A stretch of DNA of 64,000 nucleotides, from the sequence record PP430345. The stretch is one strand, 5' to 3'. Under the pieces are notes generated by a model. The model was not told the DNA's origin. It saw nothing but the letters and a program-made list of their open reading frames with translations, and ran no database searches. The translations under genes and the position numbers were made by a program. The stretch comes from Escherichia phage vB_EcoM-LTH01. Positions 41,235 through 49,271 of this stretch are shown here, one piece after another. The first letter of the stretch is position 1. Each line of letters opens with the position of its first letter.

Positions 41235-41309
41235 TGGCTGGGGATACTGGACTCGAACCAGTGAATGTTGGAATCAAAATCCAATGCCTTACCGCTTGGC
41301 TAATCCCCA
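41235..41309 (-). tRNA. tRNA-Gln (anticodon TTG)
   Basis: Manual cloverleaf: 7-bp acceptor, anticodon arm TTGGA-TTTTGAT-TCCAA, T-arm ACTGG-TTCGAGT-CCAGT, encoded CCA; close to E. coli tRNA-Gln. Confidence 0.8.
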
Positions 41310-41317
41310 TTTTTGTT

Positions 41318-41393
41318 TGGAGCGGATAACGAGACTCGAACTCGTGACATTCTGATTGGAAATCAGAAGCTCTACCAACTGAGCTATACCCGC
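41318..41393 (-). tRNA. tRNA-Gly (anticodon TCC)
   Basis: D-arm GCTCAGTTGGTAGAGC, anticodon arm TCTGA-TTTCCAA-TCAGA, T-arm ACGAG-TTCGAGT-CTCGT, CCA encoded. Confidence 0.8.
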
Positions 41394-41398
41394 ATATT

Positions 41399-41475
41399 TG
41401 GTCGGTGTACGAGGATTTGAACCTCGAACCTAATGCTCCCAAAGCATTCGCGCTACCAAGTTGCGCTATACACCG
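41399..41475 (-). tRNA. tRNA-Pro (anticodon TGG)
   Basis: Anticodon arm AATGC-TTTGGGA-GCATT, T-arm CGAGG-TTCAAAT-CCTCG, CCA encoded. Confidence 0.8.
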
Positions 41476-41479
41476 TATT

Positions 41480-41560
41480 TGGCGTGAAGGTGAAGAGTCG
41501 AACTCCTTACGACTGGTTTTGGAGGCCAGCTTGCCACCGTGACAATTATGTTACCCGCAC
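41480..41560 (-). tRNA. tRNA-Trp-like (anticodon CCA), atypical 5' half
   Basis: Anticodon loop CTCCAAA and T-arm GGAGTTCGA resemble tRNA-Trp, but acceptor pairing needs a mismatch and the D-arm region is ~5 nt too long. Confidence 0.4.
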
Positions 41561-41569
41561 ATTAATTTG

Positions 41570-41642
41570 GTTTCCGTACTGGATTCGAACCAGTATCACA
41601 ACGAGACGTTGCGGGAATCTTATCCTATAAGCCTAACGGAAA
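41570..41642 (-). tRNA. tRNA-like element, possibly non-functional
   Basis: Perfect acceptor (TTTCCGT/ACGGAAA), U8-A9 and T-arm ACTGG-TTCGAAT-CCAGT, but anticodon-position hairpin has a 3-nt TCT loop on a 7-bp stem. Confidence 0.3.
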
Positions 41643-41645
41643 ATT

Positions 41646-41732
41646 TGGTGCATTGTGATGGAGTCGAACCACCCGAGTTCTATGAACAGCAGATTTACAG
41701 TCTGCCCCGCTACCCCTACGGTCTAACAATGC
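41646..41732 (-). tRNA. tRNA-Tyr (anticodon GTA), long variable arm
   Basis: Anticodon arm GCAGA-CTGTAAA-TCTGC identical to E. coli tRNA-Tyr; variable arm GTTC-ATA-GAAC; perfect 7-bp acceptor; CCA encoded. Confidence 0.8.
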
Positions 41733-42040
41733 CTTATCCTACGGTCACACAAGTCTGACCATCTATCTCTGAGCAAGGGATTTCAAAATGTCTCCCGTCC
41801 CCAAATACATCTCGCCACATAGTCTATTCGGAAGCGGGAGTCTATGCACACCCCTTGCGGTAAGTGACCTCACTTTGAGATCAGCATCTTCCTTATTCGA
41901 CGAGTTAAATTCTCTTTAAGGTAGCCAGTGTTCGCAGCACTAACTATGAGGTATCCGTAAGATGATTTCAGTCATCTACCGAAAAATTACACCAAGCAAC
42001 TACCTTAAAGAGAACTTCTTAGTAAAGGCCCTTGCGAGCC

Positions 42041-42415
42041 TTAATCTTCACCTTCTGCCATTTTATACTCACGAATCTGAGTAGTTAATGGAATAGCATC
42101 TTTAAATGCATCAGAAGGGCCTTGATGAGTTTCTGAATTTGCAGAAGTAGTTCCTCCTGCCAGATCCTCTTCATTATCTTCCATTGTGTACAGATTGTTT
42201 GCCTTTTCAGCTTGCTCAAGAATATACTTCGCAGTAGTTTCTTTAACTTTCTCTGTACCGGAAGTCAGTAGACCTTCCAGAGTTTTAATTGCTTGAGGAG
42301 TAAGTCTTGCAAACTCGGAACGAGCATGAAGAATTGCTCTCTCAGTATTGATTGCAATGCTTTCCTCTGTAGTAGGCCGACCGCGTTTTCGAGTAACGAT
42401 TTCAGCTTTAGCCAT
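42041..42415 (-). CDS. hypothetical early protein (basic N-terminus RKRGRPTTEE, acidic C-terminus)
   Basis: ORF track 42041-42421; ATG 42415 preferred (GAGG + 5-nt spacer); promoter-like hexamers just upstream. Confidence 0.45.
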   Translation of the reverse strand: MAKAEIVTRKRGRPTTEESIAINTERAILHARSEFARLTPQAIKTLEGLLTSGTEKVKETTAKYILEQAEKANNLYTMEDNEEDLAGGTTSANSETHQGPSDAFKDAIPLTTQIREYKMAEGED

Positions 42416-42442
42416 AAACACCTCAATTCAGTCGATATAACT

Positions 42443-42471
42443 ATATTAGCAGTATAATAGGATTATGTCAA
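42443..42471 (-). promoter_or_regulatory. putative sigma70-like promoter (TTGACA-17-TAATAT)
   Basis: Consensus -35 and 4/6 -10 read on minus strand upstream of the 42415 start. Confidence 0.4.
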
Positions 42472-42607
42472 GAACTTATTGAAATGTATTAAGAAATGAA
42501 ATGGGGGTGCGCCGTTTCTGCTGTAATCTACGTCGTTATCGTTGAGGGAACTCGTAGTCAGGGAACATCAGTCCGACGACTTATCGGGAGCGACCCGACT
42601 TCTTATG

Positions 42608-42682
42608 TGGTGGCCCTGGGTGGAATCGAACCACCGTCTGGCGATTATGAGTCGCTTGCTTGAACCGTCCAGCTACAGGGCC
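42608..42682 (-). tRNA. tRNA-Met (anticodon CAT; initiator vs elongator vs tRNA-Ile2 not resolved)
   Basis: Perfect acceptor GGCCCTG/CAGGGCC, anticodon loop CTCATAA, T-arm GGTGG-TTCGATT-CCACC, discriminator A, CCA encoded. Confidence 0.75.
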
Positions 42683-43807: not shown

Positions 43808-44052
43808 TTTGCCTCCATAAAAGTCATCTTGTAACGAGAAGTTAAGTCACCCTCGTTGGGGTAGAAGAAGTATATTCGATTTCCTTTCCCAAAGTCAATC
43901 TTTTTCCAACACTCCAGAGAAAACCCTGTAGTCTCAAAAGCAATGTCGTTACCCTCATCGAAAGCTTCATCATAGCTGTTAAAGGTATCGATATACTCTT
44001 CCGTTACGTATCCAGCAGCACCGTATTCCAGTGCAAGTTTAAAGTTTTTCAT
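43804..44052 (-). CDS. small acidic protein
   Basis: 82 aa, acidic/aromatic; translationally coupled. Confidence 0.45.
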   Translation of the reverse strand: MKNFKLALEYGAAGYVTEEYIDTFNSYDEAFDEGNDIAFETTGFSLECWKKIDFGKGNRIYFFYPNEGDLTSRYKMTFMEAK

Positions 44053-44110
44053 ATTAGTTAACCAGTCAAATAAAAGTATACCTCCATTTTACTGGCATAA
44101 CCAATGATAG

Positions 44111-44356
44111 TCAATGTAACTCAAGCGATTGAAGAAGTCCAGAAATTTCTTCTTCAAGTTTAGACTCTATTTGAATCTCCTTACATGGAATCATAAACTC
44201 TGGAACCATATCGGCATAAACTCTCTCAGAAACGATTTGAGCGTTCATTGCACTCCAGTCAAGAAAAGACATGACTTCATCTGTTTCTTTCATGAGAGAG
44301 CTTCCTATTGCGTTTAAACGGCATTCTGAAACCTGATTCACGATTACCTCCATCAA
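44111..44356 (-). CDS. hypothetical protein
   Basis: ORF track; overlaps upstream stop. Confidence 0.4.
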   Translation of the reverse strand: MMEVIVNQVSECRLNAIGSSLMKETDEVMSFLDWSAMNAQIVSERVYADMVPEFMIPCKEIQIESKLEEEISGLLQSLELH

Positions 44357-44739
44357 TATCCGTACTTCTCTTTAAGTATTGGGTCGTTAACCACAATGTA
44401 ATGACGTGGTTTCGACTTCCCGTTGATTATCACCTTATCTCTGTAAATCCTGATGTAACCGCCAGTCTCCATCTTCTTAAGGAATGCACTTACCTTGGCT
44501 TGACTGGTCGGTGACATTTGAAACAACTCACACAATGCCACCTGTGATTCATAGAAACACGTTTCCACTGATTCGCCCTGTCGAGAAGCAAACTCCGCAA
44601 AGAATGAAAATCTCCACCTCAAAAGTATCATCCTCTTTAAATCCTCGCCGGACATTTCAGTAACCCAACGAAGAGGAAGCATGGCGAACGCATCGTCTTC
44701 AAAAGTCTTCTTCCCAACAGAGGTGTTTATCTCAAACAT
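44353..44739 (-). CDS. putative winged-helix DNA-binding protein (first gene of leftward early operon)
   Basis: C-terminal SQAKVSAFLKKMETGGYIRIYRDKV resembles a wHTH recognition helix plus wing; AAGAGGAGG RBS; adjacent to repeat-rich control region. Confidence 0.4.
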   Translation of the reverse strand: MFEINTSVGKKTFEDDAFAMLPLRWVTEMSGEDLKRMILLRWRFSFFAEFASRQGESVETCFYESQVALCELFQMSPTSQAKVSAFLKKMETGGYIRIYRDKVIINGKSKPRHYIVVNDPILKEKYGY

Positions 44740-44767
44740 AGACCCTCCTCTTAATCTTACCTTCGCT

Positions 44768-44795
44768 ATCTTACATGACTATCCCAACATGTCAA
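44768..44795 (-). promoter_or_regulatory. putative leftward early promoter (TTGACA-16-TAAGAT)
   Basis: Read on minus strand upstream of the 44739 start. Confidence 0.35.
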
Positions 44796-44879
44796 ACCCT
44801 TTATGCCCGTTTAGGCATACAATACTATATTAGATTTCCCTGGCTCGAAGCCTCTCGCCAAACCCTTTATCATTATAAT

Positions 44880-44929
44880 TTATTCATTTCATTCATAAAT
44901 TATATAATAATTATTCATTTCATTCATAA
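44880..44929. repeat. two copies of 19-bp direct repeat TTATTCATTTCATTCATAA separated by 12 bp
   Basis: Exact copies at 44880-44898 and 44911-44929 in AT-rich intergenic DNA. Confidence 0.7.
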
Positions 44930-44953
44930 TTATTATTAAAAACAATAAAAACA

Positions 44954-45022
44954 AGATCTTTTATAAGATCTTTTTATATATATGATCTATAGATCTACAG
45001 ATCTTAAAGGATCTTTTATAGA
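44954..45022. repeat. GATC-dense repeat block (6 GATC in 60 bp; AGATCTTTTATA-like unit x3)
   Basis: AGATCT at 44954, 44966, 44991, 44999; GATC also at 44984 and 45010. Confidence 0.7.
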
Positions 45023-45052
45023 TTTTATACTAAATTTTTTAAATTTAAAGTC

Positions 45053-45081
45053 TTGACATGGAGTTTTTACATAGGTATAGT
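45053..45081 (+). promoter_or_regulatory. putative rightward early promoter (TTGACA-17-TATAGT)
   Basis: Hexamers read upstream of the 45117 gene. Confidence 0.45.
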
Positions 45082-45116
45082 GACTCTACTTTAACAAACA
45101 ACAGGTTATCTTTATA

Positions 45117-45398
45117 ATGATTTTGAATAATAAATGTAAAAAGTTATCAGAGAATGAATTAAGTCATCTTCAAGCTATGAGAGAAGCTTGGCATTCAGCA
45201 AAAGCTGGACTGAAAGTATGTGTTGTGACTGTTTACGAATGTGACTGGTACACCATTTTGGGGAACTATTACGGAGTAATGAATCAGTATGTGGAAAAAG
45301 GCTTGATTTATCATCGTGTGGAAGATAGTATGAATCCTGACTTACAGCTTGTGGCTGAAGATTTGGATAATGTACTAATAACTTTGGAGATGATCTAA
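45117..45398 (+). CDS. hypothetical early protein
   Basis: ORF track; first gene after divergent promoter. Confidence 0.45.
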   Translation: MILNNKCKKLSENELSHLQAMREAWHSAKAGLKVCVVTVYECDWYTILGNYYGVMNQYVEKGLIYHRVEDSMNPDLQLVAEDLDNVLITLEMI

Positions 45399-45537
45399 TG
45401 AAAGAGTGTAACGATATTGTTGCGTTTGGATTGAACATCGTGGAGTTTGGAACAGTGTGGTTTCTGATGCTAATAGCATTTGGTGTCAGTTTGGTTAAGT
45501 ATCTTAACAAAGGTATTGGAGAGAGGAAAAGTAAATC

Positions 45538-45837
45538 ATGAAATTGATCTTTAGTGATGAATTAAGCGAGCAGTTGGAAAACATCTTTCGTGCACAGGAA
45601 AAGCCTCGGTTCTACTTGTGGTGTACAGAACTGAATGACCAGTTTAAATACCTCGAAGAAATCCTCGAAGGGAGGGGTGTAGAACTCACTGTGGCGAAAG
45701 TAAGACAGAACTGTGACAACTTATGCCTCTCTGTGATTGGTGACGCTGACGAGGTTGCTTGGATGGATATGGCCCTATTGGTCTATTCACATAATCATCG
45801 TTATAAGCACCTTCTTGTTTTGGAGCATATGGAATGA
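45538..45837 (+). CDS. hypothetical protein
   Basis: ORF track; GAGAGGAAA RBS. Confidence 0.45.
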   Translation: MKLIFSDELSEQLENIFRAQEKPRFYLWCTELNDQFKYLEEILEGRGVELTVAKVRQNCDNLCLSVIGDADEVAWMDMALLVYSHNHRYKHLLVLEHME

Positions 45838-47900: not shown

Positions 47901-49271
47901 GTGATGAGCGTAACTAAGATTATCGAACAACTGGCAGCAACCGGATCAACAAAAGAAAAAGAAGCGATCTTACGTAGTCATGCGGATAACGATGGCCTGC
48001 GTGAAGTATTTCGGGTAGCATATAGCAAAGAGTTAAACTTCTTTGTTCGCAGTTTTAAGGTTGATCCTGCAACTTTCCACCAAGGAAGCCGTAATCTGCA
48101 AGAGAGTATTGATCTTATCGTCAACGATGTTGCAAGCCGTATGTACACTGGGCATGAAGCTCGTGATGTTCTCACGAATGCCGTTCAACTGTGTGAAGAA
48201 CCCGAAACCCTGATAAAGATCATCAACCGCGATCTTGAGTGTGGTATCCAGACAACTCTGACCAACAAGGTTTGGAAGGACCTGATTACAGAGCCTCCTT
48301 ACCAGAGCTATACTCTTTTCAAAGAGGATCTCCTTCGTAATTTCAACTATGAGGGTGCTTTCTCCGACGAGAAGATGGACGGACTTTATGCAGACATTAT
48401 GGTTTGGCCTGAGCAGGTCATTTATCGTTCACGATCAGGGAAAGAGCTTAATTTCCGGTGTATTACTTCACTTGAGCAAAACCTGAAAGAAAAAGCCAAT
48501 TCTGATGGTCCTTTTGTTATGCACGGGGAAGGTTTAGTTATTGACCTGTCATACCCGCACGGGGTTCAACCACGAGAGATCGGTAACGGATATCTTAACC
48601 AAGATCCTGAAAACATTGATCCTAATCTGGTACGTTTGGTTGTTTGGGATGTTGTTTCTATGGACGAGTATATCGCACGTAAATCCAAGAAAAAATATAA
48701 AGACCGTCGTAAGCAGGTTGAAAATATTGTCAACTATGTTGATGAGTCTTCTCATTTCCAGATGATCCGTGGTCGTCAGATAGGCAGTCTTAAAGAGGCT
48801 ATTGACCACTTTATCGAAATGCGTTTGCAGAAGAAAGAGGGTACGGTTCTTAAAGAAGCGAATATGCCTTGGGGAGATAACAAGACTAAGAAAGGGATCA
48901 AACTTAAAAATGAGTTCGATGTTGATCTTGAGGTTGTGGCGACAACGCCTCACAAGAAGAAGCCTGGGCTTATTGGATCTCTGGTCTGCCGGACTCGTGA
49001 TGGACTTCTTGAAGTTGGTGCTGGGTCTGGACTTACTGATGCGCTTCGTAAAAAGCCGAGTGAGTATTTCATTGGGCAGATTATTACGATCAAGGCTAAT
49101 GACATTACTGATGCGGAGAATAAAGATCTGAAATCGCTGTTTTTGCCACGTTTAAATTATAAGTTTGTTGAACTTCGCTTTGATAAGAGCGTAGCCAACA
49201 GCCTGGAAGAAGTGATCGAAGCATCGAACTCTCTTCTGGATCTTCTTCGTAAAATTGCAGAGGAGGTTTAA
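47901..49271 (+). CDS. ATP-dependent DNA ligase
   Basis: Adenylation motif I KxDG present as EKMDGLYADI; 456 aa; AAGGAGAAG RBS. Confidence 0.65.
   Translation: MMSVTKIIEQLAATGSTKEKEAILRSHADNDGLREVFRVAYSKELNFFVRSFKVDPATFHQGSRNLQESIDLIVNDVASRMYTGHEARDVLTNAVQLCEEPETLIKIINRDLECGIQTTLTNKVWKDLITEPPYQSYTLFKEDLLRNFNYEGAFSDEKMDGLYADIMVWPEQVIYRSRSGKELNFRCITSLEQNLKEKANSDGPFVMHGEGLVIDLSYPHGVQPREIGNGYLNQDPENIDPNLVRLVVWDVVSMDEYIARKSKKKYKDRRKQVENIVNYVDESSHFQMIRGRQIGSLKEAIDHFIEMRLQKKEGTVLKEANMPWGDNKTKKGIKLKNEFDVDLEVVATTPHKKKPGLIGSLVCRTRDGLLEVGAGSGLTDALRKKPSEYFIGQIITIKANDITDAENKDLKSLFLPRLNYKFVELRFDKSVANSLEEVIEASNSLLDLLRKIAEEV

Follow-up and report, generated by a model that had tools for sequence, protein, structure and literature searches.

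Introduction

Several kinds of known system resemble the locus described here. They include the iteron-type theta origins, such as P1 oriR, pSC101, F and lambda ori, and the transcription-activated origins of T7 and T4, which pair a promoter with an AT-rich unwinding element. They also include sites under Dam/SeqA control, as in oriC sequestration, P1 pac and methylation-sensitive promoters. The locus is a 377-base-pair (bp) intergenic spacer at positions 44740-45116 of a 64,000-nucleotide stretch of Escherichia phage vB_EcoM-LTH01 (PP430345); this whole stretch is called the window throughout. The spacer holds a leftward and a rightward early promoter (P_L and P_R) and adjoins the gene for a predicted winged-helix protein of 128 amino acids. 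The window phage is a Vequintavirinae myovirus, an rV5-related coliphage with a genome of ~143 kilobases (kb). Across positions 44300-45500 it shares 98.8% identity with Escherichia phage UPEC06 (Vequintavirinae, 143 kb) and 96.6-97.7% with phages A7_1, A5-4, A73 and W70.

The spacer resembles iteron theta origins in its anatomy. Direct repeats adjoin an AT-rich, easily melted block with clustered GATC sites, and the gene for a small winged-helix DNA-binding protein lies next to them. As in the autoregulation of pSC101 and P1, a version of the site in the form of an inverted repeat is found at the protein's own promoter. Unlike these origins, however, the window has just two 19-bp repeats, no DnaA boxes and a 128-amino-acid protein without a second domain. 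The setting also differs: the phage is a virulent myovirus whose 143-kb genome encodes a T7-like replisome of its own.

The likeness to the other systems is also partial. A T7-like primase-helicase and a Pol A-type polymerase are present in this phage group (rV5 paper), and, as at T7 and T4 origins, an AT-rich element that unwinds easily has strong promoters next to it. Transcripts from P_L and P_R would nevertheless not enter the AT-rich block, because both promoters point away from it; an inward promoter using a conserved TACAAT (44818-44823) is only a guess, as no -35 hexamer is conserved. In common with Dam/SeqA sites, the spacer has one GATC per 10 bp of its cluster, in a phage group that encodes an adenine methylase, but the GATC sites of the window lie outside the promoter hexamers, and neither their number nor their spacing is conserved.

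We show that the spacer is certainly a conserved back-to-back early-promoter region, whose outward sigma-70 promoters drive both early operons. On comparative grounds, it certainly also holds a distinct conserved cis-element that co-occurs with the small winged-helix protein. The single most likely reading, at somewhat short of an even chance, is that this element is an iteron-type origin between the early promoters, and that the winged-helix protein also autoregulates its own promoter.

A conserved cis-element between divergent early promoters

The spacer and its two flanking genes contain the following features, given by position and strand in the window.

44353-44739, minus strand: first gene of the leftward operon, encoding the 128-amino-acid winged-helix protein; related to the DUF6945/HTH_36 type; candidate binder of the spacer
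44768-44795, minus strand: P_L, leftward early promoter, with TTGACA (44795-44790), a 16-bp gap and TAAGAT (44773-44768); from a consensus scan
44793-44804 and 44859-44870, plus strand: 12-bp direct repeat CAAACCCTTTAT; the first copy overlaps the P_L -35 hexamer
44798-44835, plus strand: 38-bp element, consisting of the inverted repeat, ACAATACTA (44819-44827) and TATTAGAT; duplicated elsewhere in the genome
44802-44819, no strand assigned: inverted repeat TATGCC-CGTTTA-GGCATA, with perfect 6-bp arms, abutting the P_L -35 hexamer; candidate operator or iteron
44874-44941, plus strand: repeat core of two units, each with TATAAT (44874-44879 and 44903-44908) followed by a 19-mer (44880-44898 and 44911-44929)
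44938-44952, plus strand: A-tract AAAAACAATAAAAAC, running into the GATC units; unique in the window
44954-45013, plus strand: six tandem GATCT(T/A) units, AT-rich; candidate unwinding element and candidate Dam/SeqA target
45021-45081, plus strand: A/T-rich UP-like element and P_R, with TTGACA (45053-45058), a 17-bp gap and TATAGT (45076-45081); from a consensus scan
45117-45398, plus strand: first gene of the rightward early operon, 93 amino acids, phrog_12865; its position is kept in Certrevirus phages and SSBI34

The two outward promoters are conserved in related phages. P_L matches 10 of the 12 consensus positions and P_R matches 11. Because the scan gave no more promoter-like hits in total than expected from shuffled sequence, support for the pair comes from conservation. 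Read on the plus strand as TGTCAA(C), the P_L -35 hexamer is kept in 12 of 14 related intergenic regions; POP15 has AGTCAAG instead, and SSBI34 lacks the hexamer. The P_R -35 hexamer is invariant in comparison with Certrevirus, and P_R fits the Certrevirus early-promoter consensus, AAAA(N3)TGTTGAC(N19)TATAAT (PMC7344957). Inward sigma-70 promoters within the repeat core, which carries two conserved TATAAT boxes, were considered and rejected. These boxes do not belong to conserved promoters because, as read from the alignment, their distance to a -35-like sequence differs (11 bp in the window versus 18 bp in Certrevirus). A further promoter-like sequence on the plus strand, TTAACA-16-TATAAT at 45091-45118, matches 11 of 12 positions; its -10 hexamer overlaps the ATG of the 93-amino-acid gene, and it is probably a false positive.

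The plan of the spacer is shared across genera. Homologues of the 128-amino-acid open reading frame (ORF) occur in 73 phage records, all of them Vequintavirinae or close relatives. We compared the spacers of 14 phages, oriented like the window and representing Certrevirus, Seunavirus, Mydovirus, Henunavirus, Avunavirus, SSBI34 and Kashira. In all 14, the homologue is the first gene of its operon and diverges from a second operon across a spacer of 270-680 bp. The shared plan begins with the leftward -35 hexamer TGTCAA(C), one to three short inverted repeats, ACAATACTA and AT-rich direct repeats. It continues with an A-tract such as AAAAACAATAAAAC, GATCT(T/A) units, an A/T-rich UP-like stretch and the rightward TTGACA promoter.

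The arms of the inverted repeat change on both sides while their symmetry is retained. They read TATGCC/GGCATA in the window phage and TATTCC-N6-GGAATA in KB57, PVP-SE1, Ro1 and K54, where two tandem copies are joined by a third in the leader; Av-05 has two copies of TGTCCCC-N5-GGGGACA. Symmetry is less than perfect in Hena1 and in several Certrevirus phages. Tandem arrays of inverted repeats are confined to one locus per genome in the KB57/PVP-SE1 group, and ACAATACTA follows the inverted repeat in most genera. The 19-mers are found only in the window lineage, Certrevirus, SSBI34, Kashira and the metagenomic contig L018; half of the genera in which the protein and its recognition helix are retained lack them. 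Two copies of ACTAACTTAT take their place in the KB57 group.

Among the non-coding segments, the repeat core is conserved best. Against six Certrevirus phages, identity is 81% in the repeat core (44866-44950), 64% in the UP-like element and P_R, 53% in the inverted-repeat segment, 35% in the GATC block and 29-45% in the remainder, while the adjoining winged-helix proteins are just ~50-57% identical. In A73 (L025), an identical T-to-A change is present in both 19-mers (TTATTCATTACATTCATAA), at the equivalents of 44888 and 44919. This paired change suggests either concerted evolution or selection for two identical sites. Conservation of the repeats and of the GATC cluster from genus to genus shows that they are not due to chance.

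Repeats, GATC cluster and duplex stability

The semi-symmetric 19-mer occurs exactly twice. The copies of TTATTCATTTCATTCATAA start at 44880 and 44911, 31 bp apart, as part of a 31-nucleotide unit repeated at 84% identity, and no further copy with up to three mismatches was found in the 64-kb window. An exact 19-bp repeat arose in none of 3000 first-order Markov simulations of 377 bp, the longest simulated repeat being 16. An iteron origin calls for at least two direct repeats at a unique non-coding site, which is what the two 19-mers provide. A loose pattern, TAT(G/T)C-N6-9-(G/T)(A/C)ATA, covers both the 19-mers and the inverted repeat, and three of its four occurrences in 64 kb fall in the spacer; it carries little weight, however, because it was chosen after the data had been inspected. 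A comparison of the 19-mer, made by eye only, with the motifs of IHF, Fur, ArgR, CpxR and similar proteins gave no convincing match.

The 38-bp element containing the inverted repeat is present a second time in the genome. The element, which includes ACAATACTATATTAGAT, recurs at UPEC06 122625-122662 (L022:28626-28663) with 97% identity over 38 bp, outside the window and in an unrelated, distant intergenic spacer. Downstream of this second copy lie a very stable terminator-like hairpin (z -5.3) and, ~110 bp later, the early-type promoter GTTGACA-17-TAGAGT. RNA folding of the inverted repeat and GC block in the 377-bp spacer gave weak z-scores of -1.5 to -1.9. In CR9 (L002:1410-1500) and other Certrevirus spacers, GTAGCCC at the position of the inverted repeat complements GGGCTAC ~50 nucleotides downstream; the latter directly precedes a T-run, and the folding z-score is weak (-1.9). 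A physical genome end at ...ACAATACTAT (also ...GGCATACAATACTAT) was also considered, as the upstream ends of two independent Logan contigs from related phages (L019 and L021) fall on the same base. We rejected it because the 38-bp repeat that starts there exceeds the k-mer of the assembler, which we take to be ~31.

Six GATC sites are clustered beside the repeats. They start at 44955, 44967, 44984, 44992, 45000 and 45010, with AGATCT starting at 44954, 44966, 44991 and 44999. At 6 per 60 bp, this is the densest GATC cluster of the window (p ~0.012 with 386 sites placed uniformly over 64 kb). The number expected in 377 bp from the local base composition is 0.8, and the remaining UPEC06 genome has at most 3 GATC per 60 bp. 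Genome-wide, GATC occurs at 5.5-6.1 per kb, and under a second-order model the observed/expected ratio is 1.02 for the window and ~1.0 for the remaining 80 kb of UPEC06.

These results can be set against the original prediction for this DNA, which had described a divergent early control region with outward promoter hexamers on both sides, two exact 19-bp direct repeats, an 11-bp repeat at 44793 and 44851, and six GATC sites in 60 bp, four of them as AGATCT. The outward promoters between divergent operons bear out the general description, and the conserved hexamers of P_L and P_R, both 19-mers and all six GATC sites (44954-45013) are present as described. The shorter repeat also exists, with its first copy at 44793, but it is 12 bp long and its second copy starts at 44859. 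A proposed check, that GATC should be elevated relative to the genome as a whole, gave an observed/expected ratio of ~1.0; the clustering is local only, and genome-wide enrichment was the wrong test.

The GATC cluster varies in length between phages. The block has five units in A7_1 and A73, six to seven in L018 and one to four at the equivalent position in other genera. When positions 44976-44990 are compared with L024 and L025, one 10-bp unit of the GATCTATA type is seen to be lost in these close relatives, which leaves five GATC sites. Judging from such alignments, the cluster evolves as units are gained and lost. Certrevirus, KB57, PVP-SE1, rV5 and the metagenomic contig L027 all retain an A-tract with AGATC after it. 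The GATCT-plus-T-rich units also agree with the E. coli oriC 13-mer, which we take to be GATCTnTTnTTTT, at 8-9 of 11 specified positions.

The repeats and GATC units lie in the least stable duplex of the window. The lowest-stability 200 bp are positions 44873-45072, with a nearest-neighbour free energy of -1.02 kcal/mol per step; this is 5.5 standard deviations above the background mean of -1.32 (standard deviation 0.055), and the next-best stretch reaches -1.18. The same 200 bp are 84% A+T, compared with 73% or less in all other 200-bp stretches of the window or of the remaining UPEC06 genome. On calculated stability, this stretch has the character of the AT-rich unwinding element of an iteron origin.

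Methylation might also act at this site. The host, E. coli, possesses Dam. UPEC06 encodes a 169-amino-acid methyltransferase with an NPPY motif and no Pfam match, as well as a C5 cytosine methylase. In Certrevirus, phage CB7 encodes a Dam-type methylase, and its digestion pattern is consistent with Dam-methylated DNA (PMC7344957). The GATC sites of the window lie ~75-133 bp upstream of the P_R start, and none overlaps the promoter hexamers or the gap between them, whereas Certrevirus has two GATC sites inside the corresponding gap of P_R. Given this distance and the lack of overlap with the hexamers, the window phage is unlikely to have a classic methylation-sensitive promoter switch here. A SeqA- or Dam-dependent effect on the spacer is possible.

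The adjoining winged-helix protein

The 128-amino-acid protein is a winged helix according to its AlphaFold2 model (predicted local distance difference test score 86). The model shows a helix-turn-helix, a long beta-hairpin wing and a short C-terminal helix, all in one domain. Its top Foldseek match is 4pql, which we take to be a RepA N-terminal domain, although it was confirmed only as an S. aureus DNA-binding protein. Other fold neighbours are the winged-helix domain of ORC2, 4pta (RepA_N), 4ro3 (PLE RepA) and the N-terminal domains of DnaB and DnaD. Of these, 4ro3 is the N-terminal domain of Vibrio PLE RepA, and 4pta, like 4pt7, is a RepA_N plasmid initiator (bioRxiv 10.1101/639039). Predicted viral structures also gave matches, all with weak E-values; among them are one DUF6945 protein and several proteins that bear the name replication initiator.

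The resemblance to RepA_N initiators (staphylococcal pSK41 and pTZ2162 RepA; Vibrio PLE RepA) extends to the DNA. The sites TATTCC-CGAAAA-GGAATA and TGCCT-CAAAA-GGCA fit the published description of these initiators (bioRxiv 10.1101/639039). Unlike them, however, the 128-amino-acid protein has neither a Pfam RepA_N match nor a C-terminal domain. Ordinary winged-helix regulators also score nearly as well as RepA_N on its fold: the repressors LexA, Fur and MarR are good matches, with scores almost equal to those of the initiator-type ones. A Pfam scan of the protein gave nothing above the cut-off, RepA_N included, and only sub-threshold hits to Cdc6_C, HTH_Crp_2, TrmB and HTH_36. A profile search of the PDB found nothing significant, and the matches of a PDB sequence search, which were to designed Symfoil repeat proteins only, were dismissed as spurious.

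The presumed DNA-contacting parts of the protein are conserved. The recognition helix, S-x-x-K-V-S-x-F-L-x-x-M-E, and the wing, KPRHYIVVN, are kept in all genera compared. A profile search of 1.8 billion proteins with the 128-amino-acid family returned 19 relatives, among them P0029 at E 6.5e-4. Four remote homologues (P0025, P0027, P0028 and P0029; 233-253 amino acids) have an acidic C-terminal tail that ends in ...VPF, ...PPF or ...TNF. Such acidic, Phe-ending tails resemble the partner-recruiting tails of E. coli SSB, T7 gp2.5 and T7 gp4. Both this tail and a second C-terminal domain are absent from the window protein.

Related elements away from divergent promoters

A similar layout is found in rV5 and Bas54. 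There, the gene for a small winged-helix protein, rV5 gp075 or Bas54_0212 (DUF6945, HTH_36-like), likewise lies beside inverted repeats, an A-tract and AGATCT. In contrast to the window, gp075 faces its repeats and sits inside an operon, 19-mers are lacking, and there are only one or two GATC sites. The gp075 protein is a winged helix of 116 amino acids and has the RefSeq name 'replication initiation protein'. Its gene is directly followed by four tandem copies of TGTCCGT-N3-ACGGACA with a period of 21-22 bp, then by ACTAA repeats, the A-tract and AGATCT. This repeat site is on the minus strand of L016:2560-2830 (~65.06-65.33 kb of the record), inside a leftward operon. Several rV5-like GenBank records annotate the repeats beside gp075 merely as a tandem repeat.

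The two protein families are linked indirectly. BLAST detected no homologue of the 128-amino-acid protein in rV5, gp075 included. A direct hhalign comparison of the 128-amino-acid family with gp075 gave E 1.4e-3, and gp075 itself scores just below the cut-offs of HTH_36 (24.5 bits against 25) and DUF6945 (27.2 bits against 28). The link runs through P0029, as this protein matches the 128-amino-acid profile and also DUF6945 above its cut-off. Direct homology between the window protein and gp075 was therefore not adopted, there being no BLAST match and only the weak profile links and the indirect one through P0029.

A further version of the layout is found on the metagenomic contig L027 (JAAETK010001392.1). 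Upstream of the P0027 gene (L027:840-1090) lie three inverted repeats of the TGTTCC/GGGAACA type, an A-tract with GATC and AT-rich DNA, together with a near-consensus DnaA box, GTATCCACA, that matches 8 of 9 positions. All genes of this contig run in one direction. Since the versions in rV5 and L027 are not placed between divergent promoters, the cis-element travels with the protein rather than with the promoter pair.

Genomic setting

The 377-bp spacer is the main divergence point of the genome map, because all genes to its left are leftward and all genes to its right are rightward. The left side comprises small ORFs, five tRNAs, the large terminase and structural genes; the right side begins with small early ORFs, followed by DNA ligase (47901-49271). 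The tRNA cluster (41235-42682, minus strand; Gln, Gly, Pro, Tyr and Met) belongs to the leftward operon, where it separates the small early ORFs from the terminase operon. A 54-amino-acid ORF on the plus strand (44775-44939), annotated as a hypothetical protein in UPEC06, falls wholly inside the repeat region. It is probably not a gene, and we treat it as non-coding because indels of 3, 7 and 1 bp in relatives disrupt its frame. An Rfam search of 44000-45600, with E-values up to 1, found no RNA family.

Discussion

The reading of the spacer as an iteron-type origin is based on sequence anatomy, conservation, protein fold class and duplex stability. From these we infer the following mechanism. 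The 128-amino-acid protein would be made early from P_L and would bind the inverted repeat beside its own -35 hexamer, resulting in autoregulation; judging from the fit to the loose pattern, it would probably bind the related 19-mers too. Bound protein, together with negative supercoiling from the two diverging transcription units, would then open the AT/GATC block. At the opened block, the T7-like primase-helicase and Pol A-type polymerase of the phage would initiate replication. Methylation of the GATC sites by host Dam, and possibly by the phage NPPY methyltransferase, along with SeqA bound to newly replicated sites, might modulate firing.

Such an origin gains support from the anatomy of the spacer, from the initiator-like fold neighbours of the protein and from the recurrence of the same layout away from divergent promoters. 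Moreover, the repeat core and GATC block lie ~75-210 bp upstream of both transcription starts, outside normal operator positions, and the winged-helix gene co-occurs with repeats in every lineage examined. The original prediction had offered an origin or a methylation-sensitive switch, possibly bound by the adjacent winged-helix protein. Its first suggestion gains support from anatomy, fold neighbours and the layout elsewhere, but a classic methylation-sensitive promoter switch is unlikely here. The protein likewise stands as a candidate binder, although its most likely target appears to be the inverted repeat at 44802-44819, beside its own promoter, and not primarily the 19-mers.

Several observations weigh against an origin at this spacer. 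The recognition helix is kept even in genera without any 19-bp repeats, so that the elements shared by all are more likely than the 19-mers to be its primary targets. DnaA boxes (TTWTNCACA) with up to one mismatch are absent from 44740-45052; the sole nearby match, with one mismatch, lies at 45065, between the hexamers of P_R. The second copy of the 38-bp element, in an unrelated spacer, resembles a possible transcription-factor site or regulon, and the third repeat copy in the transcribed leader of the KB57 group is a classic autorepressor arrangement. The cumulative GC skew does have its minimum at 44-45 kb, but this is not independent evidence for an origin because gene orientation switches at the same place. 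The authors of the rV5 paper met the same ambiguity and found replication and transcription inseparable as causes of skew.

Transposon data from the V5-like phage Bas54 point the same way. In that study, bas54_0212, the gp075 homologue, carried insertions at 17 of 20 sites and fell into the 'Intermediate' class; with ~14 reads per site, compared with 140-400 in neighbouring genes, insertions were tolerated at reduced fitness. A small ORF annotated over the Bas54 repeats had a similar insertion pattern. Zero insertions were recovered in a 2.5-kb non-coding region of Bas54 between convergent genes, which corresponds to rV5 104.0-106.6 kb (L017:1515-4118, 2.6 kb). The ends of the UPEC06 record (L022:48049-49141 and L023:1-1117), outside the window, form ~2 kb at a convergent junction with only tiny annotated ORFs and are likely the counterpart of the rV5 region. 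In the subfamily, an essential origin or packaging site could instead lie in this convergent non-coding region, which makes it a rival candidate. We rejected it as a homologue of the spacer, since it lies between convergent genes and has no repeats in common with it.

Transcriptional control without any start of replication is the main alternative, tentative but realistic. Here, the 128-amino-acid protein would be an autorepressor or activator acting on the inverted repeat by P_L and on the distant second copy. The AT-rich repeats, A-tract and GATC sites would then set the strength and timing of both early promoters, whether as UP-like elements, as bends or as binding sites for nucleoid proteins (H-NS, Fis, IHF, SeqA). 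Two strong consensus promoters do flank the spacer, their hexamers conserved and the Certrevirus early consensus matched, yet the 19-mers and GATC units are ~75-210 bp from both starts, too far for simple occlusion. While the inverted repeat abuts the P_L -35 hexamer and the KB57/PVP-SE1 copies bracket their promoter (two upstream, one in the leader), the rV5 and L027 elements have no divergent promoter pair to control. LexA, Fur and MarR are among the good fold matches, and the Bas54 homologue is non-essential and annotated as a putative transcriptional regulator; on the other hand, the long homologues end in acidic, Phe-terminated tails that are typical of replication proteins and not of repressors. 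Finally, a copy of the 38-bp element in another intergenic spacer and the absence of DnaA boxes from the element fit regulation, but a melting propensity so extreme that it is unique in the genome does not. An origin and transcriptional control are not mutually exclusive.

Two other explanations are much less probable. The pac site of P1 has clustered GATC-containing repeats and is cleaved at a time set by Dam. A packaging site of this kind, in which GATC repeats mark the first terminase cut and Dam times cleavage, is improbable here. It would suit a conserved cluster of GATC units at a unique non-coding site in a phage group with its own adenine methylase, but the number and spacing of the units are highly variable, from 1 to 7. 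Similarly, the leftward operon that starts from the spacer reaches the terminase and structural genes ~4.4 kb away, yet tRNAs and ~ten small genes lie between the element and the large terminase gene. The element is paired with the winged-helix gene instead of with terminase genes, in rV5 and L027 also, and the 38-bp repeat accounts for the contig ends that first hinted at a physical terminus. Least probable of all is a neutral AT-rich spacer, with repeats that arose through replication slippage and persist merely because of their position between promoters. AT-rich DNA readily yields short repeats and false promoter hits, and the GATC block gains or loses 8-10-bp units even between phages that are 97% identical. 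Slippage alone would nevertheless have to account for a repeat core that is 81% identical across genera whose winged-helix proteins share ~50-57%, for an exact 19-bp repeat seen in 0 of 3000 simulations, for the joint change of both 19-mers in A73, and for an element order kept in at least six lineages.

The iteron-type origin may be common to the subfamily. We advance with some reserve, as a possibility and not as the probable case, a shared and previously unrecognised Vequintavirinae origin that extends from rV5 through Certrevirus to UPEC06-like phages. It would consist of a mini-initiator of the DUF6945/HTH_36 type, semi-palindromic iterons that co-evolve with it and a methylation-dependent GATCT unwinding element. 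The general kind of system is well known; this element and protein family are not described in the literature searched. If the proposal is true, an iteron-and-initiator system would serve a T7-like replisome in a large virulent myovirus, and the shared origin would explain why skew analysis failed to locate it.

No replication origin has yet been located in the rV5-like phages, despite their wide use in phage therapy and biocontrol. The present analysis yields a defined, conserved and testable origin candidate of ~250 bp and its likely binding protein, and places the same element beside gp075 in rV5. Should the element prove purely regulatory, it would still mark the main early-transcription switch and would give a role to a family of small hypothetical proteins. 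Under either reading, this is a site to avoid or to exploit in the engineering of these phages.

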